The notes beneath the pieces were generated by a model. It was not told the DNA's origin. It searched no databases and saw only the letters and a list, made by a program, of their open reading frames with translations. This document shows, piece after piece, positions 1-39,982 of a DNA stretch of 64,000 nucleotides; the stretch's first letter is position 1, and every line of letters begins with the position of its first letter. The translations under genes and the position numbers were made by a program. The DNA comes from Candidatus Woesearchaeota archaeon. GTDB taxonomy: Archaea > Nanobdellota > Nanobdellia > Woesearchaeales > JAFCFN01. The stretch lies in contig JAFCFN010000003.1 in assembly GCA_017608625.1 (NCBI GenBank), positions 3,068-67,067 on the forward strand, given 5' to 3'.

Positions 1-187
1 ACCTTAACTGAAAAAGGATATCTTCCTTGATCAAAAACCTCTGTAGGAGGAGCTCCTTCTGTAAAACTCAAAACTAATCCTTGAGAACCTCCAGCAAAAG
101 CAGTACCAATTTCCACTTCTTCAGCACATTTTTGTCCACCTATTAATAAGAAAAATGTCACCAGAATCAAAATAACTTCTTTTCTCA
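1..187 (-). CDS. Secreted Cys-rich protein, N-terminal fragment; the gene continues beyond the window start. Third member of the tandem paralog family.
   Basis: Minus-strand ATG at 187. Translation MRKEVILILVTFFLLIGGQKC...GSQGLVLSFTEGAPPTEVFD aligns with the N-termini of the 238..1170 and 1214..2161 proteins (signal peptide, then G.QGLVLSF..APP motif). Confidence 0.5.
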
Positions 188-237
188 TTTTACCTCCTTT
201 TTTATTTCAAATGGTTTTTTATTAATAAATCTTTTGT

Positions 238-1170
238 CTATTCAGGTGTTTTTATTATTTCTATTTGTTTTGATATTGAAGACATATAACCATAATCCAG
301 CTGAATCTTCAAAGGAGTTTCATAAGCATCTCCTGTTGTTGGTTTGCTTGCATAACAAATTATAAAACCTCGATTATTGTACAGATCAATTTGATAATCA
401 TTCGGCCTACAATCATACAAAGGCTCCCCAGAAATCTCTGCTGAAAAATCAACCCTATTTAAATTTGTATAATCTAATCTTCCAGGACAAGCATCAAGCT
501 GGTCAACATCAACAACCAAGCCATCTCCAACATTCTGAACATATATCTTGAATTGTATTTTATCCTTCATCACAGCTTCCTCAACTCTGGTAACAGCAAC
601 AGGTCCTCCTTGGGAAGTTAAACTTACATCATGAACAGTACATACTTTTTCCCTAACCTCTGCTGAATAAGGATTGGGATCTATGCAAACAACAGGAGTG
701 GCTATTGTTTGATACTCATAACATGCTGTTGCTAACAAAGCAGGTTTGTAAGACTCAACTCCTTCTGGTAATTGTATTATAGAAGAAGTAAAATCTACTA
801 CGCTGTATCCTCCTTCTGGATTATACTGATCCTTTCCAAATAAATTTCTATCAATCTCTTGCCAATCACCTTCATCAAATATAATATAATTTGGATCAAA
901 ACCTCTCAAGTAAAGCTTTCCTATAAAATTCTTATTCTCTGTAGAAGAAGGATAAGCACCTTTATTTTTTATCTCTATCCCAACCCTTAACTCATCTAAA
1001 TCATAAATCTTATTAGGAGGCATATTGTTCATAAAACTCAAAACCAATCCTTGATTACCAACCCTATATTTAGATTCTACAACCTCTTCTCTAGCTTTTC
1101 TCGGACATGCTTGGCCAGCTATAAGTAAGAAAATTGTTATTAAAGCAATTATACCTATTTTTTTATCCAT
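238..1170 (-). CDS. Secreted Cys-rich beta-rich protein, paralog family member 2
   Basis: N-terminal signal peptide. About 7 conserved Cys and blocks (TPVVCIDPNPY, TSQGGPVAVTRVEE, LDYGYMSSIS) shared with 1214..2161. Confidence 0.6.
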   Translation of the reverse strand: MDKKIGIIALITIFLLIAGQACPRKAREEVVESKYRVGNQGLVLSFMNNMPPNKIYDLDELRVGIEIKNKGAYPSSTENKNFIGKLYLRGFDPNYIIFDEGDWQEIDRNLFGKDQYNPEGGYSVVDFTSSIIQLPEGVESYKPALLATACYEYQTIATPVVCIDPNPYSAEVREKVCTVHDVSLTSQGGPVAVTRVEEAVMKDKIQFKIYVQNVGDGLVVDVDQLDACPGRLDYTNLNRVDFSAEISGEPLYDCRPNDYQIDLYNNRGFIICYASKPTTGDAYETPLKIQLDYGYMSSISKQIEIIKTPE

Positions 1171-1213
1171 CTTTTATAATAATTTATTTTTTTATTTAAA
1201 ACTTTTTCTAATA

Positions 1214-2161
1214 TTATTTCTCTATTATAATTTCTCTTGATATGGTGGATGTATAACCGTACTCCAGTTTAATGTTTAAAACAGTTTCATAAGCTAACTC
1301 TTCTTTATCTATCCAATCCTGTTCTAGAGCAGAACATCTTACAAAATTTCTTGTTTTGGTTAATTTTACAGGATTTGGAGTACAGCTTAATTCCTTGCCA
1401 GATAAATATGCCTTTACATTAACTATATTCCATGAATCCTTGCTTAAACCAGTTGCAGAGCAAGCCTCTTCTATATCATCCTTATTAACAATTTGACCAT
1501 TACCTTTATTTGTTATATAAATCAAAAATTGAGGCTCTACTTTATCCCCATGTACAATCATCTTTTGTTCAACTTTTGTAACAGCAACTGGAGCGCCTTG
1601 AGAATTTAAACCAATATCTTTAACAGCACATGACTTTTCCCCAGCCCTTAAATTATAAACATCAGGATCAATACATACAGTTGGATTTACTGTTGTAGAA
1701 TATTTATAGCAAGTTGTTAAGCCAATTGTGCTTGTGTGACTTTCCATCAATTCTTCTATTTTTTTTGTCTTAGCTGTTATTTTTATAATACCCTCTCCTC
1801 CGTATATATTGTACTCAGATTTACCTTCTAAATCAAAAATCACTTGCTCAGGACCAAAACCAGAACTAACAATAGGCTCTTCAAAACTCCAGTCATACAG
1901 CTCAACATAATCTTTTTCTAAACTAAGAGTTAGATAACCTCCCTCAACATCAGAAACACCTTTATTTTTAATATTAGCTATAATTTGAAACTCACTATCT
2001 TCTGCTATTTTATCAGGAGGAGCCCCATTTAAAAACTCCATCACTATTCCTTCCGTTCCTTTATAGATGTCAATTGGTTGAGGTTTTTGAATAAAAGTAC
2101 ATCTTGTATAACCTGAAATAAAGAGCAATACCAAGATTAAAAATAAAATTGTTTTTTTCAT
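1214..2161 (-). CDS. Secreted Cys-rich beta-rich protein, paralog family member 1
   Basis: Signal peptide. Conserved blocks NPTVCIDPDVY, NSQGAPVAVTKVEQ, LEYGYTSTIS paralogous to 238..1170. Confidence 0.6.
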   Translation of the reverse strand: MKKTILFLILVLLFISGYTRCTFIQKPQPIDIYKGTEGIVMEFLNGAPPDKIAEDSEFQIIANIKNKGVSDVEGGYLTLSLEKDYVELYDWSFEEPIVSSGFGPEQVIFDLEGKSEYNIYGGEGIIKITAKTKKIEELMESHTSTIGLTTCYKYSTTVNPTVCIDPDVYNLRAGEKSCAVKDIGLNSQGAPVAVTKVEQKMIVHGDKVEPQFLIYITNKGNGQIVNKDDIEEACSATGLSKDSWNIVNVKAYLSGKELSCTPNPVKLTKTRNFVRCSALEQDWIDKEELAYETVLNIKLEYGYTSTISREIIIEK

Positions 2162-4020
2162 TCTATACCTTGGATTTTAGCCCTGTATGCAGTGACTTCA
2201 TTATACCACTGATCTTTCGCTTCTGCATAACAATGGGTGCTTGTTTCAAAACCAGAACCCTGAATACAAACTATTTTTGCAGGAGTATCTTGACCGTATC
2301 CATCAACATAATTCTGTTTAATCAAACGATAAAATTCAGTTATACTATCTCTAATTGTACCAAATTTTCTGTATATTGGATGTAATACACACTGTGTACC
2401 TGTACCGATAAATGAAATGCCAAAAAGATTCCTACAATCTTTCGAAACAATACTTCTGTAGCCCCAACTTTCATGCATTGCAACAGCAATAGCAAAGGCA
2501 GGATCTATATCATACATTGCTCCATAATTATAAAAGTTATCAACCTGATTTATCAAATCAGGTGCATACTGTGTAAGATAACTTTTGATTTGATCTTTTG
2601 TCACTTTTTGTTCCATTTTAGACCAAACAACTGTTCCTTTAGATAAAGCAGTAGCAGTTGATTTCGCATCTTCCAAAATTGAAGGCTTCTTGGTAATAGC
2701 TTCTGTTTCTTCTCCTTTTTTGACACTAACAACTGTTGACTTATTCAATCTATAATTATATTCTACTATAACTTTAAAATACCTTGTTGCTATTGGTGTT
2801 GTTCCTAACAACCTTAAATCAGGATCTACATTAAAATCACATTTAAATGTTTCAAATGTTTCAACTTTCAATTTTTTAGGTTTTGATAAAATATATAAGT
2901 TATAGCCTTCTTCACATTCTTCCATTGGAGCACCTTTACCATAACATTGCTGATATCTGAAATCATAACCTTTTTCACAACTTAAATTATCCATGCTCAA
3001 ACCATCAGGAACTTTTATTATTAAATTTGTAATTTCTTTTATTCCTCCATCCCATCTATTATTTAGAGTGACTCCTAAAGAAACTGAATTCAGATATTTC
3101 CTAGATGGTTCAGTATAAATTCCAATAGGCTGCTTTCCTGTTTCAACTTGCATACCAATTTCAACTGGACCATTACTATAAATAGCAACGGGGCTTTTAT
3201 CCTTTATTCCATATTGATCCAGAACATCAATCCCCTCCCTTGTCATTGTTCTTAATCTTGTTTTATCAATAAAATAACTTTTAATATAAGCCATCGTCTT
3301 AAAATTAAAATCAGCATTAAAAGTAACTTTGTGTATTCCTTCTGACAAAGGAGGCAAGTTGCACTCAATATCTTCTTCCTCATAGAGATCAATAGCATAA
3401 TCCTTTGTTAAATATTTTGGATTTATTTGTCCTTTAATCTCCTTCGCATTACAACCAACACTTACATTAACAGGCTCATCAAGAACTTTTGCTTTTAGAG
3501 TAGCCCACACTATCACGGGTTCATTAGAATAAAAATAAGGATCAGCTGGCTTTAGATCTTCCAAATAAACACCAATAGGTTCATACCTGTTTTTATCAAC
3601 TTTGCCTGTAAAATAGTCTCCTGTTAAAGCAGCTTCATATTTTTTCTGATATTCAGTTATTTTCTCAAACGGTTTTATAAATATCATTCCTACTTTAGTT
3701 AGAAGTCCACCAATTTTTTGTCCAAGTGTTTCACCAGGCATTGCAAGGTAAATACTTTTGCCAAACCAATATAGCCCTATAAAAATAATGAAAATAATAG
3801 GTAAAATAATAAAAAAAGATTTCCAATTTTCTGTCCTTTTATAAACATAAAAATAATCAAAAATTCCTGCTAAGAAAAGCAAAATAAGAACAACAAAGAC
3901 ACCCAATATCTGAAAGCCAAGAAACCATACTAAAATCATTGTTATTATAATTGCTATAATTGAAAAAACAAGCCCTAAAATATCATTTCCAGTTTCTCTA
4001 ATCCCTATCTCATCAACCAT
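2158..4020 (-). CDS. Membrane-anchored protein (N-terminal TM helices, large extracytoplasmic region) with a C-terminal GH73-like N-acetylglucosaminidase (glycan hydrolase) domain
   Basis: Three to four N-terminal hydrophobic helices. C-terminal AIAVAMHESWGY...RNLFGIS resembles the GH73 glucosaminidase motifs AQAALESGWG...NNLFGIK. Confidence 0.5.
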   Translation of the reverse strand: MVDEIGIRETGNDILGLVFSIIAIIITMILVWFLGFQILGVFVVLILLFLAGIFDYFYVYKRTENWKSFFIILPIIFIIFIGLYWFGKSIYLAMPGETLGQKIGGLLTKVGMIFIKPFEKITEYQKKYEAALTGDYFTGKVDKNRYEPIGVYLEDLKPADPYFYSNEPVIVWATLKAKVLDEPVNVSVGCNAKEIKGQINPKYLTKDYAIDLYEEEDIECNLPPLSEGIHKVTFNADFNFKTMAYIKSYFIDKTRLRTMTREGIDVLDQYGIKDKSPVAIYSNGPVEIGMQVETGKQPIGIYTEPSRKYLNSVSLGVTLNNRWDGGIKEITNLIIKVPDGLSMDNLSCEKGYDFRYQQCYGKGAPMEECEEGYNLYILSKPKKLKVETFETFKCDFNVDPDLRLLGTTPIATRYFKVIVEYNYRLNKSTVVSVKKGEETEAITKKPSILEDAKSTATALSKGTVVWSKMEQKVTKDQIKSYLTQYAPDLINQVDNFYNYGAMYDIDPAFAIAVAMHESWGYRSIVSKDCRNLFGISFIGTGTQCVLHPIYRKFGTIRDSITEFYRLIKQNYVDGYGQDTPAKIVCIQGSGFETSTHCYAEAKDQWYNEVTAYRAKIQGIE

Positions 4021-4044
4021 TCTACCTCTTTTTTAAAAAGAAAA

Positions 4045-26876: not shown

Positions 26877-27860
26877 TTACTTGCCTTGTTTACTTTCTAG
26901 TGAAATATATTGAATAGTAGGAACTTCTTGAATCATTTTTTTATTAGGTCTCATAGGATAACTCATCTTTATAAGTCTTTTAGCACACCCTGGAACAGAC
27001 CCTTTTAGTAACACATAATCATTCTTAACTAAACCATATCTTATAAAACCACCTTTAGGATTAATTTCTTCCCCTTTATCTCCAATTTTTATAATCCATT
27101 TGTTTTTTTCAGTTCTTACATTATAACCAGTTTTACCAGCATGGGCAACTCTCCACATTATATGTTGCTGTGCATTCCATGGTCCTAAAGAACCAGGAGC
27201 TCTTCTTCCTTTTTCTGATTTATGACTTTTCAGAGAAATACCAAATCTCTTTACAGGACCTTGCGTTCCTTTACCTTTTGTTACAGCATGAACATCTACT
27301 TGCTGGCCTTCTGAAAAAATATCTCTAACTGAGACCTCTTTTCCAATCAAATTTTTTAAGTATTCTAGTTTTTTATCCTTTTCACCACCAACTGCAATCT
27401 CAAAAACCTCAGGCTTTTTCTTACCTATTCCTGTTTTTTTAGGTTGAGTATAAACAATTGCTCTTACATCATCAAAATCTTTTATGTCCTCTATTTTTTT
27501 CTTTAATTTTTCAGGTAGAATTATTTTTCTAGATAATTCCTTATCGAGATTTTGTGAAAGGATAGAAGCAGAAAGAGTTAAACCATAGGGAGTTTTCTTG
27601 TAAAAATTCACCCCAAGAACCTTTATAGTTGGACACTCAATAACAGTCACTGGAATTTTTATATCCTCACCTTTTGTTAATGAATGAGCTCTATTATCAG
27701 TAATTATTATATGTGTCATACCTGCTTTATATCCTGGAAAACATAATAATTTTGTTTCTGATATAGTAGGCCAACTCCTAATTCTAGCATAAGGTTTTTT
27801 AGCCCTTTTTCTAGGCCAATACTGCAGACTCCCTTTCCTAGGTTTTCTTACGTTTGGCAT
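26877..27860 (-). CDS. rpl3: Ribosomal protein L3 (uL3); first gene of the super-operon
   Basis: FPGYKAGMTHII...VTKGKGTQGPVKRFG...MWRVAHAGKTGY. Confidence 0.9.
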   Translation of the reverse strand: MPNVRKPRKGSLQYWPRKRAKKPYARIRSWPTISETKLLCFPGYKAGMTHIIITDNRAHSLTKGEDIKIPVTVIECPTIKVLGVNFYKKTPYGLTLSASILSQNLDKELSRKIILPEKLKKKIEDIKDFDDVRAIVYTQPKKTGIGKKKPEVFEIAVGGEKDKKLEYLKNLIGKEVSVRDIFSEGQQVDVHAVTKGKGTQGPVKRFGISLKSHKSEKGRRAPGSLGPWNAQQHIMWRVAHAGKTGYNVRTEKNKWIIKIGDKGEEINPKGGFIRYGLVKNDYVLLKGSVPGCAKRLIKMSYPMRPNKKMIQEVPTIQYISLESKQGK

Positions 27861-28292: not shown

Positions 28293-28688
28293 ATGAAAAA
28301 ATTTATACTTAAAGATGGAAAGCTTATTAGTCTCCCAGAGCCAAACAAAGATTATCCTAATAAAAAATTAGATCGAGAAACTTTGGGAGAAATACTAGAT
28401 GATCTATGTGCAATAAATGCTGTTTTGGAGCATTGTGGTACTCTTTTGGATCTAAAAGTAAAAGATCCTGACTACTTAAATCCAACACTTTTTACTGAAG
28501 GTTCTGGATGTGGCCAAACATATAGAGAGTACCTTGAACAAATAAAATACGCCCTTGAGAATGGAATAAAGAGAAAAAGTTTCAGCAATGAAGATATACA
28601 AATTCTACGAGGTGTAAGAGCCCCCTATATAGATTCAGAGGGAATTACAAAAAAACTAGATTTTAACAAATCAAAGTACGGAATTTAA
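28293..28688 (+). CDS. Hypothetical protein
   Basis: ORF only. Divergent from the r-protein operon. No recognisable motif. Confidence 0.35.
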   Translation: MKKFILKDGKLISLPEPNKDYPNKKLDRETLGEILDDLCAINAVLEHCGTLLDLKVKDPDYLNPTLFTEGSGCGQTYREYLEQIKYALENGIKRKSFSNEDIQILRGVRAPYIDSEGITKKLDFNKSKYGI

Positions 28689-30010
28689 TTTTTCTTTTCA
28701 TTCTTTTTCTTATCTTTATTCAAATGAAATGTCTTTCTCACACTATAATTAACAGGGTTTTTAATCTTAGAACAAAGATTATCTGGCTTGCAAACACCAA
28801 TCTCTTTATAGTAAAGATTATTCGCACAATTTGGAGGCAAAACCTTTTTCTTGTGATTTTTATGATATTTTATTTGACTCATTAAATAGCCGTCACTTAG
28901 CGGTGTGCTATTTTTTTTATTCCATTCTCTGAGAAATTTTTCCATCTGTTCGTAATCCCAACCAAGACTTGATAAAAAATTAATCAAAATAAACAATGCT
29001 CTTTTTCTTCCATCTTCCAAACCTTTCAAAATCAATTTAATACACGGAGGGAAGAACTGCTCTTGAACAGCTTTTACAGGCACATTAAATTCTTTTGCAT
29101 TTTTAATACCTAAATTTTCTTCTTTTATATTAAAATCAAAAGCCTGTACAATTAGTTGTTTTGCCTCACCCTTAGTTACATTACTCCTTTCTAAAAAATG
29201 TCTTTCGACTTTAACATTTTCTGGCTTTGCTTTTTCTTTATTAAACTCCAAAACTTCATCAAGAGAAATTGGCAAAGAGATTAAACCGGATTTTTCATTA
29301 AAACAATAAGGCATTCTATAAAGATGTCTTTTAGAAATCAAAATAGTATCAATATCTACTAAGGAAAAAGGATCTAATTCATTATTTATGATTATTTCAT
29401 TAAATTTTTTCCCACTTTTCTTCATCAATTCTCTAATGTCATATTTTTTTAAAATTTCCTTAGCTAAGTGCTTTCTTACCATCTCTTTCAAATAAGCAGC
29501 TATCTTTCTCGGTCCATCTGGATATAATAATCTTGTTTCTTTGTCATAAACTTTATCAGGAAAAGCTTCGAATGGCACACCAATATGAAAACCCTTGTTC
29601 CCAGAAAATTTGCAAGAAACACTTTTAATGCCATAATACTTTAATGCTTTGATTATTAAATCAGCAGCTATTTTACTAAGCTCTAGATCACAGCTATCTA
29701 CATCCAAAACCAAATCCCAACCTTTTCTTAATGAATTCAACTCTTTTTCTTTCATATGTGTATCTATTTGTAATGGATTACTCCATAACTCTTCAGAAGC
29801 ATGAAAAGAGGTTGCACCCTGTTTAGCTAACTCCAGTATATCTCCTTCATGTTGTAATGTATCAGGCCTTTTTCCAAAACCTTTATTTCCATATTTAACT
29901 GCAATTTCTCTATCCTTCGCATTAGCTAGAATAGCCTTTTGTACATCCTTTCTTTTATAGTATTTTAGAAGAGTGCTTAATGTTAACATATTTATAACTA
30001 AGAATAACAA
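28685..30010 (-). CDS. DNA primase, fused small-subunit catalytic domain (PriS) and large-subunit Fe-S C-terminal domain (PriL-CTD)
   Basis: PriS motifs LVLDVDSCD (DxD) and FSGNKGFHIGV (SGxRG[YF]H). C-terminal FFPPCIKLILKG plus Cys at PPNCANN, GVCKPDNLC matches the PriL 4-Cys Fe-S domain. Confidence 0.75.
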   Translation of the reverse strand: MLFLVINMLTLSTLLKYYKRKDVQKAILANAKDREIAVKYGNKGFGKRPDTLQHEGDILELAKQGATSFHASEELWSNPLQIDTHMKEKELNSLRKGWDLVLDVDSCDLELSKIAADLIIKALKYYGIKSVSCKFSGNKGFHIGVPFEAFPDKVYDKETRLLYPDGPRKIAAYLKEMVRKHLAKEILKKYDIRELMKKSGKKFNEIIINNELDPFSLVDIDTILISKRHLYRMPYCFNEKSGLISLPISLDEVLEFNKEKAKPENVKVERHFLERSNVTKGEAKQLIVQAFDFNIKEENLGIKNAKEFNVPVKAVQEQFFPPCIKLILKGLEDGRKRALFILINFLSSLGWDYEQMEKFLREWNKKNSTPLSDGYLMSQIKYHKNHKKKVLPPNCANNLYYKEIGVCKPDNLCSKIKNPVNYSVRKTFHLNKDKKKNEKKN

Positions 30011-30014
30011 ATAT

Positions 30015-31388
30015 TTAAGGGTTTTCTATTAATCCATCTTTTTCAGCTCTGGGTAAATAGTGTTCTAGTATAAAATGTTCCTGAGCTTTTGCATCACACC
30101 AAAATCCAGTAGCTATTGCTTGGATAGCAAGTCTTTTACCCTCACAGCTTCTTATATCGATTACTTTTTTTATTTTTTCAATTAAATTTGAGATATGTTC
30201 TTTTCCAAAAATATAAATCATCTGATCAAGTGTTTCTGAGAACTCTCTGTCATTAAAAAGATAGTAATCTTTCTGATATCTTTTCACACGGGTCACACTT
30301 GCTAATTTCTTATGCGCTTTAATTCCAAATTGCTCAGGAAGTTTTGGATTGTAATCTCTTTCAATTTCTTGCAATTCTGAAATATCATGAAAAACCCAAG
30401 GAACTTTTTCATCGATATAAGATTTTATATAGTAATTCATTAAATCTAAATCAAATTTTGAGAATTTGTATTTGTTTTGATGTTGTTTTGCCCACGAAAT
30501 AAAGAATTTTTCTACTTCTAACGCTACTCCTTCTGTTACTACCCCATGACATAAAGAATTATATGTTTCTGGAGCATATCTCAACCCAGAAGGCATATTT
30601 TCTGATATCTTTTCTTCCAAACCATGAGCAAGCTCATGCACACCTATTACAAAAGCAAATGCTCTATTAAAAATATACTCTTTTTCCTTCCCAGCTTTAT
30701 TGTAACAAAATATCTTATCGGGATCAATGGCCATAAGAAAATTATGACCTTCCCAATAACTGAATCCGATATTGCTAGGAGCTAACTCAATCGTATACTC
30801 AGGGTTTTTATCCAGCATTCCCAAACTAACATAAAAGCTATCAACTACTTTTTTGATATCATTTAGTTGAGATTCTAACAAGCCTCTCAATCTAGAATAT
30901 GTTGTTCTTTCGAGAATGATTTCACTATCTAAACTTCTGCTTAAAACAGAATGTAATAAAGCATATTTTTTATGGATAGCCTTATGATCTAGATTTTCAG
31001 GCTTAGCCATGTTAAGAAGTCTTGAATACGCAGCTCTACCAAAAACCTTTGAAAGAAAATTTCCAATAGGCTTATTAACTTTCATATTATAAAAATAGTC
31101 ATCTTCAGCAATAGTTTTTCTAACTGTTGCTTCAATATCCCTCAGAACCAATTCGTCAAAACTTTCTAAATATTGAGTTGAATTATAAATTTTTTTAATT
31201 TCCCTCTGCATCTTCTTCATTAACTTCCTTCTTTTCTCAAGAGTTGTCAAAGAAATAAAAATTTGTGGATCTTCTTTAGTTTGATAATAAAGCATGGATG
31301 TTAATTTATTAAGTTGAATCCTCTGTTTATCTAATTCACTAATTCTTTTATCTTTTATAACCCATCTTTGAGTATATTTCAACTTCAT
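30015..31388 (-). CDS. HExxH-motif protein, putative gluzincin-type metallopeptidase; co-operonic with the primase
   Basis: VIGVHELAHGLEE...TEGVA (HExxH plus a downstream Glu). Ends 4 nt from the primase start on the same strand. Confidence 0.45.
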   Translation of the reverse strand: MKLKYTQRWVIKDKRISELDKQRIQLNKLTSMLYYQTKEDPQIFISLTTLEKRRKLMKKMQREIKKIYNSTQYLESFDELVLRDIEATVRKTIAEDDYFYNMKVNKPIGNFLSKVFGRAAYSRLLNMAKPENLDHKAIHKKYALLHSVLSRSLDSEIILERTTYSRLRGLLESQLNDIKKVVDSFYVSLGMLDKNPEYTIELAPSNIGFSYWEGHNFLMAIDPDKIFCYNKAGKEKEYIFNRAFAFVIGVHELAHGLEEKISENMPSGLRYAPETYNSLCHGVVTEGVALEVEKFFISWAKQHQNKYKFSKFDLDLMNYYIKSYIDEKVPWVFHDISELQEIERDYNPKLPEQFGIKAHKKLASVTRVKRYQKDYYLFNDREFSETLDQMIYIFGKEHISNLIEKIKKVIDIRSCEGKRLAIQAIATGFWCDAKAQEHFILEHYLPRAEKDGLIENP

Positions 31389-31555
31389 TTTTTATGTTAA
31401 AAATTTACCTAGTTCAAAATGTAGCAAATATTTTATAGCAATTCCAACTAAGAATAGTTTTTTGTCAAAATTTAAATAATTTTCTGTTGATTATCACTTT
31501 CAAGTAGATTTAAATGAACCAATACTCATATAAATCAAAAAAATAAGCAACTCTT

Positions 31556-31918
31556 ATGCAAAACTTACAGGATCATATACACAAACTAAAAATAGCAAAA
31601 AAACTAATCCTAGTGGAGGGTCCAAAAGACAAAAAAGCACTACAAAGACTAGGAGTCAAGAACATAATTACTCTGAAAAAACCTCTTTTTGCTATTGTTG
31701 AAGAGATCTCAGCTAAAACAAAAGAGTGTATTATTTTAACAGACCTTGATAAAAAAGGCAAAGAGCTGTACTCAAAATTATCAAAAGATCTTAAAAAACA
31801 TGGCGTAAAAATAGACAACACATTTAGAAATTTCTTGTTAAAAGAAACAAAACTAAAGCAAATAGAAGGCTTGACATCATATATTAAAAAATTCAGTCAA
31901 AGAAATAACTCTCATTGA
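31556..31918 (+). CDS. Small Toprim-domain protein (COG1658-like)
   Basis: LILVEGPKDKKALQRLG...ECIILTDLDKKGKEL: conserved Glu and DxD of the Toprim fold. 120 aa. Confidence 0.6.
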   Translation: MQNLQDHIHKLKIAKKLILVEGPKDKKALQRLGVKNIITLKKPLFAIVEEISAKTKECIILTDLDKKGKELYSKLSKDLKKHGVKIDNTFRNFLLKETKLKQIEGLTSYIKKFSQRNNSH

Positions 31919-32294
31919 TTCTATCACTATTCTTAACTATATCTGTGCTTGTTATTATTCCTACTAATTCATTATTATCAATGACAGGTAACTTTTTTAT
32001 TTTATTCTTTGCCATTAACCATGCTGCATCGTCAATATTAACTTCAGGTTCAGTTGTTATAACTTTCTCAGTCATTATTTCTTTTACTAATACAGAATCT
32101 CCATGCTTACCTTTTGCCTCTACTTTTGATAGTATATCTCTTTCAGTTATTATACCGACAATTCTCTTATCATCCATCACAACTAAACATCCAATATTCT
32201 TTTTAGACATCAAATCTGCAGCCTCTTTAATAGTTGCATCTGGTTTTATTGTTACAGCTTTGTTCATAATTTCTTTAACTTGCATACAGATCAA
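31893..32294 (-). CDS. CBS domain pair protein
   Basis: Two CBS repeats (VKEIMNKAVTIKPDATIKEAADLM...GCLVVMDDKRIVGIITERDI; VKEIMTEKVIT...LPVIDNNELVGIITSTDI). Confidence 0.8.
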   Translation of the reverse strand: MICMQVKEIMNKAVTIKPDATIKEAADLMSKKNIGCLVVMDDKRIVGIITERDILSKVEAKGKHGDSVLVKEIMTEKVITTEPEVNIDDAAWLMAKNKIKKLPVIDNNELVGIITSTDIVKNSDRINESYFFD

Positions 32295-32329: not shown

Positions 32330-33187
32330 ATGTTGAAAAATCAGATTAAAACAGTTTTTTTCTTAGCACTGCTCACTGCTTTATTATTAGGTGTTGGCCA
32401 TTTAATAGCTGGAAGAAATGGCTTAACAATAGCTCTGTTCTTTGCAATTATTATGAATTTTAGTGCTTATTGGTGGTCTGATAAAATTGTTTTAGCAATG
32501 TATAGAGCAAAGCCAGTAACAAAAAATCAAGCACCAAAATTATACAAAATAGTAAAAGAAGTAAGTCAAATGGCAAAAGTACCAATGCCCAAGATTTATA
32601 TTATTCCCACTATGCATAGTAACGCATTCGCAACTGGCAGATCACCAAAACACGCAGCTATTGCATGTACCTTAGGCATTCTTAATTTGCTTAATGAAAA
32701 AGAGTTAAAAGGAGTAATCGCCCATGAAATTTCTCACATTAAAAATAGAGATATTTTAATTTCATCAATTGCAGCAACAATAGCAGGAGTCATATCTTAT
32801 ATTGCAATGATAGCAAGATGGACAGCTATTTTTGGAGGATTTGGAGGCAGAGATAGAGATGGAGGAAATATTTTTGAATTGCTAGTTTTAGCAATAGTAA
32901 CACCAATAATTGCAACTTTAATTCAACTAGCAATATCAAGATCAAGAGAGTATTTAGCAGATGAATCAGCAGCAAGAATACTAAAAGATGGATCAGGACT
33001 AGCTTCAGCCTTAGCAAAACTCTCTGCAGATATAAAACAAAAACCCCTAAGAGCAATGTCAACAACAGAAAGCACAGCACATCTATTTATAGCAAATCCT
33101 TTTAGAGGTGGAGGATTAGTTACCTTGTTCATGACCCATCCACCGATAGAGAAAAGAATTGCTAGACTAAAAGAACTTAAGTTCTAA
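32330..33187 (+). CDS. htpX: HtpX-family M48 zinc metalloprotease
   Basis: Four TM helices. HEISHIKNRD (HExxH). Overall HtpX layout. Confidence 0.85.
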   Translation: MLKNQIKTVFFLALLTALLLGVGHLIAGRNGLTIALFFAIIMNFSAYWWSDKIVLAMYRAKPVTKNQAPKLYKIVKEVSQMAKVPMPKIYIIPTMHSNAFATGRSPKHAAIACTLGILNLLNEKELKGVIAHEISHIKNRDILISSIAATIAGVISYIAMIARWTAIFGGFGGRDRDGGNIFELLVLAIVTPIIATLIQLAISRSREYLADESAARILKDGSGLASALAKLSADIKQKPLRAMSTTESTAHLFIANPFRGGGLVTLFMTHPPIEKRIARLKELKF

Positions 33188-35388
33188 TCTTTATATTCCT
33201 TCTCAACAACGTCTTTAATTGCCCTAGCTTTCTTTGGCCCTATTCCTTCTACTTTTTCTAATTGCTCTTCCTTAGCATTAATTATTTTTCTAACAGTTTT
33301 AAATTTTCTTAATAAAGGCCTTGCTAAGCCTATACCAATCCCAGGCAAACTAGAAATAAAATACTCTTGCTGCTCTTTCAATGTCATTGGCTTCTTGCTT
33401 CCATGAGGGCTAAACTCCCTGCCAATCTCTTCTTGCTCCCTTTTAGCTATCAAATACAAATAAGCTCCAGTTTCCTTATAGTTTCTTGAAAACAAAATAG
33501 GAACACCATAATCGATTGCTATTGAGCTTAACACACCTCTGATAGCATTAGGATGGACATTTCTGATGGAATAAATATCCTCCTCTCCTTCAACAATTAA
33601 CAATGGCCTTTCAAAATTATTCTTTAATTCTTTGATCTGCTGTAATAGTCTTCCATTAACTAAACTATTGACAAAATCACTAACTGTTTTAAACTCAACA
33701 CCAACCCTGCCACTCAATATATAATCTCCAATATCTAATTTCTCAAGCTTAATTTCAACCCCCAAATCAATCAATTCTTTAACAACCTTGTTTGGTTTTT
33801 CCCTGTAATCAACAAATACTATTATTTTATCATCAGGAATAAAAGAATTCAGTGTAACTTCCTTTTTCTTTAAAGCAAGTTTGCTCTTCAAATTTTCCAA
33901 AATTCTGTACATTCTTTTCTCTTTGTGATGTGCAACCCATCTATAAGCAACATCTCTTGTTCCCTCTGTCATTAAAATAATAACTCTTCCTTTTTCCAAT
34001 CTACCTGTTCTACCTTTTCTTTGAATAGTCCTAATTGCAGAAGGAATTGGTTCATAAAAAATAACAAGATCAACCTTTGGAATATCTAAACCTTCTTCAC
34101 CAATAGATGTACAGCATAATACATTAAATTTTCCATCTCTGAATTCTTCTAATACCTTTTTCTGATCTCTTTGACTTAAACCAGTTCCTTGTTTTTTTAA
34201 TTGCCCTACAAATATCTTTGCCTTAACACCTTTAATACTATTCAACTTATTTTGAATATCAATTACATTGTCCCTGTACTGATTAAAGACAATTATTTTG
34301 ATGTTGCTATTGCTCCTAACTTCTTTTTCAACAATTTTTTGCAACTCAATTAATTTTGGATGCTCTACTTTTTCTTTATATAACTGCTCAACTTTAACAA
34401 ATGCTTTTTTAAAATTAACATCTTCTGTAATGTTTTTAGATGCCTTTACTTTACCCTTACTTGCTTCGCTCATTAATTTCTCAAAATATCTATACAATGC
34501 AACTATTCCTTGTGTTTCTAATAACTCTAAAGCATAATAAATCTTAAAAACCTCTGCCAACAAAGAAATTCCTTGCCACAAAACAACATTCTTTTCTCCT
34601 CTAGCTATTCTTCCTGATAAGGCTCCTTGCATAGCCAACAACTCTTTCTTGCTTATGGAGGAGATATTAGTACTTCTTACAATTTTCAGTTCTTTTAATT
34701 TTTTCAGTCTATCTTTTAAAAAATCCTTCAAACATTTCTGCACATCCAAAAAAGGAGCAGGCAGTTTAACAGTTCTCCACTCCATCCTGATTTCTTGAAT
34801 ATAAGGTTGCACATCTAAGCTACTATAAGTTCTTGCCTCAATAGCTTCTATAAACAAATTAGAACAAATCTCTTTTATCTTCTCTAAATCAGAGCCAGGA
34901 GAAGCAGTTAAAGCAATGATTCTTGGATATTTTGCTAGTTTTTGATATTGTTTAGCAACAAAAACATAAGCATAATCACCAACAGCCCTATGCGCTTCAT
35001 CTACACCTAATAAAGAAACATCCTCCAAATTAATTCGTCTGCTTATAATATCATTCTCCAAACCTTGAGGAGTTGAGAAAATAATAGTTGCTTTTTTCCA
35101 TAACTCAGCTCTTTTTTCAGGCTTAACAGCACCTGTAAAAATAGCATATTTTTCTTTATCAAGATCAAAATGTTTTAGAAAAACCTGATAATACTGCTCT
35201 ATAAGAGGTCTTGTTGGACCAATAAATAATATTTTGCTTTTGGGATATAACTTTAGTCTATGGCTAGCCAACATTAAAAAGATAGCAGTCTTACCCATCC
35301 CAGTTGGCAATACAACTAAAGTATTTTTACTAGTACAGGTAGCTAGAATAGTCTCCTGATACAATCTAGGTTTGAAATTCTTGATCAT
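33184..35388 (-). CDS. hef: Hef-like helicase-nuclease (FANCM/XPF family): DEAH helicase plus ERCC4 nuclease-like domain plus HhH2
   Basis: VLPTGMGKT Walker A, VDEAHRAVG, QRKGRTGR motif VI. C-terminal VDYREKPNKV...VEFKTVSDF ERCC4-like (the ERK motif appears altered to EFK), then GIGIGLARPLL and IEGIGPKKA HhH pair. Confidence 0.8.
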   Translation of the reverse strand: MIKNFKPRLYQETILATCTSKNTLVVLPTGMGKTAIFLMLASHRLKLYPKSKILFIGPTRPLIEQYYQVFLKHFDLDKEKYAIFTGAVKPEKRAELWKKATIIFSTPQGLENDIISRRINLEDVSLLGVDEAHRAVGDYAYVFVAKQYQKLAKYPRIIALTASPGSDLEKIKEICSNLFIEAIEARTYSSLDVQPYIQEIRMEWRTVKLPAPFLDVQKCLKDFLKDRLKKLKELKIVRSTNISSISKKELLAMQGALSGRIARGEKNVVLWQGISLLAEVFKIYYALELLETQGIVALYRYFEKLMSEASKGKVKASKNITEDVNFKKAFVKVEQLYKEKVEHPKLIELQKIVEKEVRSNSNIKIIVFNQYRDNVIDIQNKLNSIKGVKAKIFVGQLKKQGTGLSQRDQKKVLEEFRDGKFNVLCCTSIGEEGLDIPKVDLVIFYEPIPSAIRTIQRKGRTGRLEKGRVIILMTEGTRDVAYRWVAHHKEKRMYRILENLKSKLALKKKEVTLNSFIPDDKIIVFVDYREKPNKVVKELIDLGVEIKLEKLDIGDYILSGRVGVEFKTVSDFVNSLVNGRLLQQIKELKNNFERPLLIVEGEEDIYSIRNVHPNAIRGVLSSIAIDYGVPILFSRNYKETGAYLYLIAKREQEEIGREFSPHGSKKPMTLKEQQEYFISSLPGIGIGLARPLLRKFKTVRKIINAKEEQLEKVEGIGPKKARAIKDVVEKEYKD

Positions 35389-39825: not shown

Positions 39826-39946
39826 TGCGGGGAGGAGGATTCGAACCCCCGTAGGCACTAAGCCAACAGGTCTCTTAGTAAAACACTTGAGCCTGTCCCG
39901 TTTGGCCAGTCCAGCTTGCTTGTAAACAAGTCTCCGGCATCCCCGC
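39826..39946 (-). tRNA. tRNA-Leu(CAA) with two introns (canonical 37/38 and D-loop)
   Basis: Minus strand reads GCGGGGA TG CCGG...ACAGG CTCAAG[intron]..CCTGT..GGCTTAGTGCC (long variable arm) GGGGGTTCGAATCCTCC TCCCCGC A. The 121-nt gene is longer than a mature ~87-nt tRNA-Leu, the difference being the introns. Confidence 0.7.
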
Positions 39947-39982
39947 AAACATAAATAAGAAAGAAACAGTTAGTATAAAAAC

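Follow-up and report, generated by a model that had tools for sequence, protein, structure and literature searches.

Single-chain primases that join PriS to PriL have been published as a synapomorphy of the Undinarchaeota and the cluster-2 DPANN archaea (PMC7414124), and one of them, NEQ395 of Nanoarchaeum equitans, has been characterised biochemically (PMC10250227). Among the metalloenzymes with a HExxH zinc motif, the peptidase families M2, M3 and M32 make up the 'neurolysin-like' family of SCOP (PMC4580569), DUF885 belongs to the Peptidase_MA clan of Pfam (PMC12572635), and M49, the dipeptidyl peptidase III (DPP III) family, is where a duality of pentapeptide and hexapeptide zinc motifs is otherwise known (PMC5805324). 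Proteins comparable to both groups lie side by side in a stretch of 64,000 nucleotides (nt) from a Candidatus Woesearchaeota archaeon (contig JAFCFN010000003.1, positions 3,068 to 67,067; hereafter the window), in which two co-oriented minus-strand open reading frames (ORFs), 28685..30010 (441 aa from a TTG) and 30015..31388 (457 aa), encode a fused primase and a HExxH protein, respectively. The original prediction joined these two and a divergent small Toprim gene into a co-transcribed, lineage-specific replication-initiation module. The explanation that we hold to be likely is a different one: an ordinary primase, a rare zinc-peptidase-like neighbour sitting in a variable slot of the gene order, and a primase promoter independent of that neighbour. 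The features at issue are as follows:

30015 to 31388, minus strand: soluble HExxH...E protein of an orphan gluzincin family, 457 aa, a predicted zinc oligopeptidase or carboxypeptidase

30531 to 30638, minus strand: predicted zinc site, with H251, E252 and H255 on helix 243-264 and E286-G287 and E293 on helix 278-302

28685 to 29989, minus strand: fused primase of PriS and the PriL C-terminal domain (CTD), 434 aa, with Pfam PF01896 and PF04104 above gathering scores

The modest value of the locus lies in the HExxH gene, which represents a small family of predicted zinc peptidases that has no annotation and has been seen to date only in Woesearchaeota-like archaea. The 457-aa protein is without a match in Pfam, NCBIfam, PHROGs, PADLOC or the PDB sequences, and searches of the same collections with 50 family members (40 + 10) gave nothing significant. 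A word-indexed homology search recovered only the protein itself and two relatives at 55% identity, and three to four proteins even with a 40-sequence profile, while an exhaustive hidden Markov model (HMM) search of 1.84 billion cluster representatives (50% identity clusters) found 82 proteins at E <= 1e-3, with 32 at E <= 1e-30. All of these are unnamed or labelled 'hypothetical protein', and most are singletons. The case named against the original prediction was that of a common peptidase with no conserved linkage to primase genes; the protein belongs instead to a rare orphan family of about 82 clusters, and a conserved linkage to primases was likewise not found.

Within 40 full-length members, which share 18-55% identity with the query, H251, E252, H255 and E286 never vary, and conservation reaches at least 90% for G287 and E293. 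The window protein itself reads H251-ELAH-255 and E286 which, together with the lack of any library match, bears out the earlier view of a HExxH...E protein of no described family. The pattern HExxH-x30-EGxAxxxE reads as a gluzincin signature, and the second histidine and the glutamate are separated by 30-32 residues in all members. The motif itself is more variable than this spacing: 27 of the 40 have the pentapeptide HExxH and 13 a hexapeptide (12 HExxGH, 1 HExxNH), the latter being scattered over the family tree with the His-to-Glu distance still at 30-32. No hydrophobic, transmembrane or signal-like segment is present in the 457-aa protein.

An AlphaFold2 model of the protein, built on the family alignment, reached a mean predicted local distance difference test (pLDDT) of 94.7 and a predicted template-modelling score (pTM) of 0.93. 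It is nearly all-helical, with a five-strand sheet (199-241) directly before the HExxH helix (243-264), which is followed by the helix bearing the glutamate (278-302); in the model, this order of a five-strand sheet and two helices is the usual zincin core. The top match of a Foldseek search against the PDB was the M32 carboxypeptidase of P. furiosus (1k9x; E 1.6e-3, probability 1.0, template-modelling (TM) score 0.41), followed by 3o0y, ACE/ACE2 (M2), 7a03 and Pz peptidase A (M3B). A second AlphaFold2 model, of a 550-aa family variant (pLDDT 91.7), had its best matches in 3u24 (E 1.2e-3), 3iuk (DUF885) and ACE2/ACE. We take 3o0y and 3u24 to be DUF885 members as well. For either model, the top matches consist entirely of HExxH gluzincins with one architecture, with TM-scores to M32/M2/M3-type structures of only 0.33-0.41, i.e. 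a weak whole-chain match.

At the sequence level the relations to the known families fade. MEROPS M32 enzymes are marked by the motifs HPF, DxRxT, HES, IRxxAD and GxxQDxHW, all of which are absent here, and with no Pfam match either, membership of M32 was rejected. Membership of MEROPS M3 was rejected too: Pfam Peptidase_M3 does not exceed its gathering score, the one isolated weak match being at E 2.4e-4 in one of the 40 members (none for the window protein), and an hhalign comparison with E. coli PrlC reached 61% over the HExxH helix (30 columns) only and was not significant. Another isolated weak match was to K-26 DCP. The earlier question had been whether the protein has a peptidase fold (M1/M3-like) or a new one. 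The M1 part of this fell, as an M1-like aminopeptidase would have GxMEN, which is missing, and the invariant glutamate lies 30-32 residues after the second histidine and not at x18 within WLNEGFA as in M1 (a glutamate at +18 occurs in the window protein but is not invariant in the family); what stood is the weak whole-chain likeness to the M32/M2/M3/DUF885 enzymes. MEROPS M49 was discarded with no M49 Pfam match and no DPP III among the Foldseek matches. Overall, the family appears to share the neurolysin-like/DUF885 architecture but fails the sequence tests of each of those families.

On balance, the protein most probably represents a new family of soluble zinc peptidases, acting as an oligopeptidase or a carboxypeptidase. 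The metal site is read from the sequence, and the substrate class is one that we infer. The ORF would encode a zinc metallopeptidase of the cytoplasm, soluble and belonging to a rare family with no earlier description, in which zinc would be held by H251, H255 and E286, with E252 acting as the general base. A helical clam-shell fold resembling the M32/M2/M3 ('neurolysin-like') and DUF885-type gluzincins would limit its substrates to short peptides. A second function that could explain the location of the gene is that of a DNA-protein crosslink protease, or another nucleic-acid-associated zincin of the SprT/Wss1 kind: the protein has a zincin core, its neighbours include a primase, a Toprim protein and Hef, and Foldseek comparison with viral models brought up SprT-like proteins over the catalytic core (probability 0.5-0.85). 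However, these matches extend over no more than 110-150 residues of generic zincin core, with E > 0.5, and nothing significant was found among the viral models; the whole-chain matches go to the M32/M2/M3/DUF885-type enzymes, and no DNA-binding or zinc-ribbon domain is detectable in a family whose isoelectric points range from 5.9 to 9.2. A SprT/Wss1-like assignment was rejected on the core-level character of the matches and the lack of detectable DNA-binding domains, and we regard an explanation of the location along these lines as very improbable.

The primase, in contrast to its neighbour, adds nothing new, being a further orthologue of a published and biochemically studied DPANN fusion. 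Pfam DNA_primase_S (PF01896) matches residues 110-249 with 34.4 bits (cut-off 26.8) and DNA_primase_lrg (PF04104) matches residues 285-417 of the same chain with 34.6 bits (cut-off 22.4), the latter over profile positions 86-218 of 266 only, which corresponds to the C-terminal domain without the PriL N-terminal domain. Its only match among PDB sequences is the archaeal PriL 9f26_B, aligned at FFPPC and PPNC...C...C. In 30 orthologues, D96/D98, SGNKGFH (129-135) and the cysteines C316, C388, C400 and C406 are at least 97% conserved (434-aa numbering). Both the prediction of a fused PriS-PriL(CTD) primase and the presence of the PriL-CTD in it were thus confirmed, by the two Pfam domains in one chain with conserved motifs and cysteines and by the alignment with 9f26_B. 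The accompanying statement that single-chain primases are rare is wrong for the DPANN clade concerned, in which the fusion is a known clade-wide trait: at least 3921 homologues at E <= 1e-3 were found among 8000 candidates scored, the best-scoring 120 are nearly all 425-503 aa long with PriS and/or PriL Pfam matches, and those with source names come from Woesearchaeota or Nanoarchaeota. By its catalytic domain, its Fe-S domain and its host, the window protein classifies as a fused PriS-PriL(CTD) primase of the cluster-2 DPANN. It would be the ordinary replicative primase of the host, of the single-chain type typical of that cluster; by analogy with NEQ395, the PriS domain (D96/D98, SGNKGFH) would catalyse primer synthesis and the fused Fe-S domain (C316, C388, C400, C406) would support initiation.

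The closeness of the two genes had suggested translational coupling, on account of a stop-to-start distance of 4 nt that depends on the TTG at 30010. However, the gene callers on contigs of the Joint Genome Institute (JGI) that carry identical copies give a primase of 434 aa starting at ATG 29989, and the primase orthologues all begin with MLTLS/MITLS..., matching that ATG (MLTLSTLLKYYKRK...). With this start the gap to the HExxH stop is 25 nt, and it is 33 nt in the relative at locus L003, rather than an overlap or a spacing of 4 nt or less, which leaves the coupling unsupported. Within this region lies a further feature:

30012 to 30021, minus strand: TATA-like box CCCTTAAATA (also read as CTTAAATA), starting 30 nt 5' of the primase ATG

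This box, at -30 of the primase, overlaps the stop codon of HExxH (30015-30017). The window shares the block AAACCCTTAAATAT letter for letter with L003 and with locus L007, where the upstream gene is Band_7 and not HExxH; CCCTTAAATA is not a repeated motif within the window. About nine other window genes carry TATA-like boxes that start -28..-34 relative to their ATG and lack a Shine-Dalgarno (SD) sequence, a spacing that would be expected of leaderless mRNAs. An independent promoter lying within the 3' end of the peptidase gene probably serves the primase, whose mRNA would probably be leaderless or nearly so. Transcription reading through from the HExxH gene into the primase gene may occur, but would be neither conserved nor required.

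As to translation signals in general, the genes with a TATA-like box and no SD include those at 1170, 5311, 9251, 32330, 36872, 44996 and 59640, and other genes of the window have SD sequences of the GAGGTGA/GGGGGT type. A GGGG(G) SD-like element precedes the primase orthologues in L003, L007, L008 and L010, and the window copy is without one.

To place the two genes in context we surveyed 22 loci by HMM scans plus gene tables; a search for related loci with the close sequence sets gave one genome locus and three metagenome loci. The informative loci are the following, with percent identity to the window protein:

L003: HExxH 55%, primase 77%; HExxH then primase, no Toprim

L016/L017: HExxH 28%, primase 53%; order Hef, M48, Toprim (minus), HExxH (plus), 488-aa gene (minus), primase (plus), rpL3

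L001/L002/L006: HExxH 55%; a ribonucleotide reductase region on one side and a PP-loop gene on the other, no primase

L011: HExxH 24%; adjoins a cytidine-deaminase-domain gene

L012: HExxH 31%; near a PolB-like gene

L014: HExxH 33%; adjoins a HhH-GPD gene

L018: HExxH 37%; adjoins a MFS transporter

L019: HExxH 33%; between RtcB and a ThiI-like gene

L007: primase 82%; Band_7 upstream

L008: primase 66%; divergent NUDIX-Toprim pair upstream

L010: primase 57-58%; divergent Toprim gene upstream

L022: primase 57%; Hef directly upstream

The rpL3-L4-L23-L2 genes are found immediately downstream in every primase locus (window, L007, L008, L010, L016, L022), and Hef is found upstream wherever the contig reaches that far (L003, L007, L008, L016, L022 and the window). 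The space between Hef and the primase is occupied by M48, CBS, Toprim, HExxH, Band_7, NUDIX or nucleotidyltransferase genes, varying by lineage, or by nothing. Thus, the conserved unit is Hef, a variable slot, the primase and the rpL3 operon, and the peptidase and primase genes adjoin because the peptidase gene occupies this slot. The gene order is that of a conserved block with a variable slot and not of a dedicated replication module. In the window, the block is completed by these neighbours:

26877 to 27860, minus strand: rpL3, first gene of the L3-L4-L23-L2-S19-L22-S3... operon, directly downstream of the primase

33184 to 35388, minus strand: Hef helicase-nuclease, upstream anchor of the block (Pfam DEAD/Helicase_C/ERCC4/HHH on an identical protein)

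32330 to 33187, plus strand: M48 peptidase, 285 aa (Pfam Peptidase_M48, 4e-35), with orthologues in some related loci only

31893 to 32294, minus strand: CBS-pair protein (Pfam CBS, 2e-33), with orthologues in some related loci only

31556 to 31918, plus strand: small Toprim protein, COG1658/PRK04017-like, 120 aa, with E21 and D63-x-D65 present

31389 to 31555, no strand: divergent intergenic region of 167 bp between the HExxH and Toprim genes, AT-rich with TATA-like elements

28293 to 28688, plus strand: orphan ORF, 131 aa, convergent to the primase, with a 4-nt overlap at the primase stop codon

HExxH and primase genes occur together only in the window, L003 and L016/L017, i.e. in three of about 11 HExxH lineages, whereas the HExxH homologues of L001, L011, L012, L014, L018 and L019 are not near a primase and four of six other primase contexts are without a HExxH gene. 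Of the predicted two-gene arrangement, therefore, the co-oriented ORFs stand but a conserved adjacency does not, given that the primase orthologues at 82, 66, 58 and 57% identity have other genes upstream. The linkage of the HExxH gene to primases likewise fails overall, with a partial exception in the 28%-identical member of L016/L017, which also lies between Toprim and primase, albeit with an opposite-strand gene intervening. With the 25-nt gap, the TATA-like box kept in L007, the patchy linkage and the rarity of the HExxH family, the notion of a co-transcribed, lineage-specific replication-initiation module is not supported.

A weaker form of that notion deserves weighing, in which the HExxH peptidase, the fused primase and the Toprim protein are a functional unit in some Woesearchaeota with their order kept by selection; the peptidase might, for example, process or regulate a replication protein. 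It is favoured by an order that is the same in the window, L003 (where Toprim is missing) and L016/L017, which represents another branch of the family, and by a same-strand spacing of 25-33 nt in the window and L003, which would allow co-transcription. Other family members lie near ribonucleotide reductase, PolB-like, HhH-GPD and cytidine deaminase domain genes, but DPANN genomes are rich in information-processing genes, and such neighbours are expected by chance. In L016/L017, moreover, the HExxH and primase genes are split by the opposite-strand 488-aa gene, so that they form no operon there; the closest primase orthologue (82%, L007) has Band_7 upstream with the same TATA-like block; at least six HExxH lineages are unlinked, one of them with a protein 55% identical to that of the window; and the primase outnumbers the family at least 40-fold. 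Evolution is also much faster in the HExxH protein (55% identity versus 77% for the primase in L003, 28 versus 53% in L016), which cannot be an obligatory partner of the primase. We consider such a unit unlikely.

The linked HExxH members fall in two separate branches of a rough neighbour-joining tree with unlinked members between them, which favours an ancestral position at the primase locus followed by repeated loss or relocation. Hence, the peptidase gene was probably at the Hef-primase slot ancestrally, and would since have disappeared or changed place on many occasions. Different genes do fill the Hef-primase slot in every lineage sampled, as would be expected if it were recombination-prone and the HExxH gene had been inserted into it twice independently, with no ancestral location and no functional meaning to its position. 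For one rare gene to have been inserted twice independently at one position, with one orientation relative to Toprim and the primase, is, however, less parsimonious than its retention, and the block that L007 retains, identical to the last HExxH codons and stop, fits a loss of the gene as well as it fits a conserved promoter. Double insertion accordingly appears rather unlikely to us. More speculative still, and in our view quite doubtful, is an ancestral partnership between the orphan gluzincin and the Woesearchaeota Toprim-primase locus, in which the gluzincin would be a protease acting on a replication or repair protein, or on DNA-bound proteins, and would have been retained at this locus in at least two deep branches. 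Separately, the family could be a second case, after M49, of a zinc peptidase with a metal-binding helix that accepts HExxH as well as HExxGH.

Several points weigh against our preferred reading of an ordinary primase with a rare peptidase neighbour in a variable slot. Two lineages whose HExxH proteins share only 28% identity both have the gene placed between Toprim and primase, a co-location which exceeds chance for genomes of about 1000 genes, so that some selective reason for the location is possible. The independent HExxH contexts sampled number only about 11. The TATA-like boxes at -28..-34 are enriched only about 2-fold over background in AT-rich DNA, and it is from spacing and conservation in such an AT-rich genome that we infer the primase promoter. 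Finally, activity, metal content and substrate are predictions for every member of the family.

Away from the primase locus, HExxH genes adjoin PP-loop or ThiI-like genes twice (L001 9416-10333, L019 9346-10236) and a cytidine-deaminase-domain gene once (L011 435-1481), cases that are too few to judge. RtcB and a class-I tRNA synthetase are encoded near the HExxH gene of L019. Near that of L014, a related archaeal contig, positions 1-4031 hold an intein-bearing Lhr-type helicase (Intein_splicing, LAGLIDADG), with an RVT_1 reverse transcriptase gene beside it.

The third gene of the predicted module, the divergent COG1658-type Toprim protein, was correctly recognised: it matches Pfam Toprim with 35.7 bits (cut-off 23.1), with Toprim_4 also above its cut-off, and its gene lies 167 bp from the HExxH start. 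The NCBIfam PRK04017 models match at E 1e-18 with 67 bits, below the equivalog cut-off of 124. The closest solved structure is the uncharacterised A. aeolicus protein 1t6t (E 6.5e-15). Toprim orthologues were found near the primase in L008 (5169-5543), L010 (5619-5948) and L016 (5379-5795), and overall four of six primase lineages have a small Toprim gene near the fused primase or divergent from it, which is more often than the HExxH gene is found there. A literature search on COG1658 and archaeal RNase M5-like proteins returned nothing on their function, and no RNA family matched the intergenic region 31389..31555. As for the other neighbours, the 131-aa ORF 28293..28688 has no family match and no homologue in the related loci, and is called as a gene in L005. 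The M48 gene, intact in the window, is split into ORFs of 185 and 93 aa in L004 (8228-9059), from the same population, owing either to a frameshift in that variant or to faulty assembly.

The primase, HExxH and Toprim genes are all real. Identical copies of the primase and of the 457-aa protein are present on several JGI metagenome contigs, and a relative of the latter, at 55% identity, lies on a contig named Candidatus Woesearchaeota archaeon. The window has a GC content of about 31% throughout, a host-like composition, and archaeal signal recognition particle RNA and RNase P RNA were detected in it; the host is a low-GC DPANN archaeon of the Woesearchaeota type. A phage or defence origin was rejected on the host-like composition and the lack of any PADLOC or PHROGs match. 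Elsewhere in the window, a tRNA-like gene of about 121 nt (39827-39947, minus strand: GCGGGGA...GGTTCGAATCC...TCCCCGCA) was missed by ARAGORN and Rfam. When about 20-23 nt are deleted in its D-arm region, ARAGORN calls a tRNA-Leu(CAA) with a 14-nt canonical intron, and the gene is probably a two-intron tRNA.

Comparison with the described systems brings out where this locus is familiar and where it departs from them. With NEQ395 and the fused primases of the Undinarchaeota and cluster-2 DPANN (PMC10250227, PMC7414124), the window primase shares a single chain in which the PriL C-terminal Fe-S domain comes after the catalytic domain of PriS, as well as DxD, SGxxGxH, the four cysteines, a length of about 430 aa and a DPANN host; it is a Woesearchaeota orthologue distinct from the NEQ395 protein. 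The Hef-primase-rpL3 block is another archaeal case of replication genes placed beside translation genes, and this primase-rpL3 linkage differs from the PCNA-PriS-Gins15 / L44E-S27E cluster (PMC2643942). The Toprim protein has in common with the small Toprim proteins of COG1658/PRK04017, including A. aeolicus 1t6t and related to RNase M5, a length of about 120 aa, a single Toprim domain and the Glu + DxD residues, and differs from the NCBIfam equivalogs in scoring below their cut-offs.

For the HExxH family, the likeness to M32 (1k9x), M2 (ACE/ACE2) and M3 (neurolysin, Pz peptidase A, PrlC) consists in HExxH plus a glutamate that the model places on the next helix, a chain of about 450-500 aa modelled as mostly helical, in which a small sheet precedes the active-site helix, and a predicted place in the cytosol. 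It differs from them in lacking significant sequence similarity, with hhalign reaching the HExxH helix only, and in the His-to-Glu spacing (30-32 versus 25-26 in neurolysin and PfuCP). DUF885 (PF05960; 3iuk) and the 'putative lipoprotein' structures 3o0y and 3u24, which rank first or among the highest in the Foldseek results of both models, are likewise uncharacterised HExxH proteins, of the Peptidase_MA clan (PMC12572635). They are bacterial and of about 550-585 aa, and no Pfam DUF885 match is listed for any member of the archaeal family. The confident models, the clear zinc site and the interchange of HExxH and HExxGH make the family a cheap target for MEROPS/Pfam classification and for the question of how peptides are recycled in DPANN cells. 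The M49 enzymes, which are cytosolic and trim peptides, furnish a parallel, as HExxH and HExxGH forms coexist within one family in both; in M49, however, the second motif is EExR(K)AE(D), about 50 residues downstream, whereas in the HExxH family it is EGxAxxxE, about 30 residues downstream (PMC5805324).

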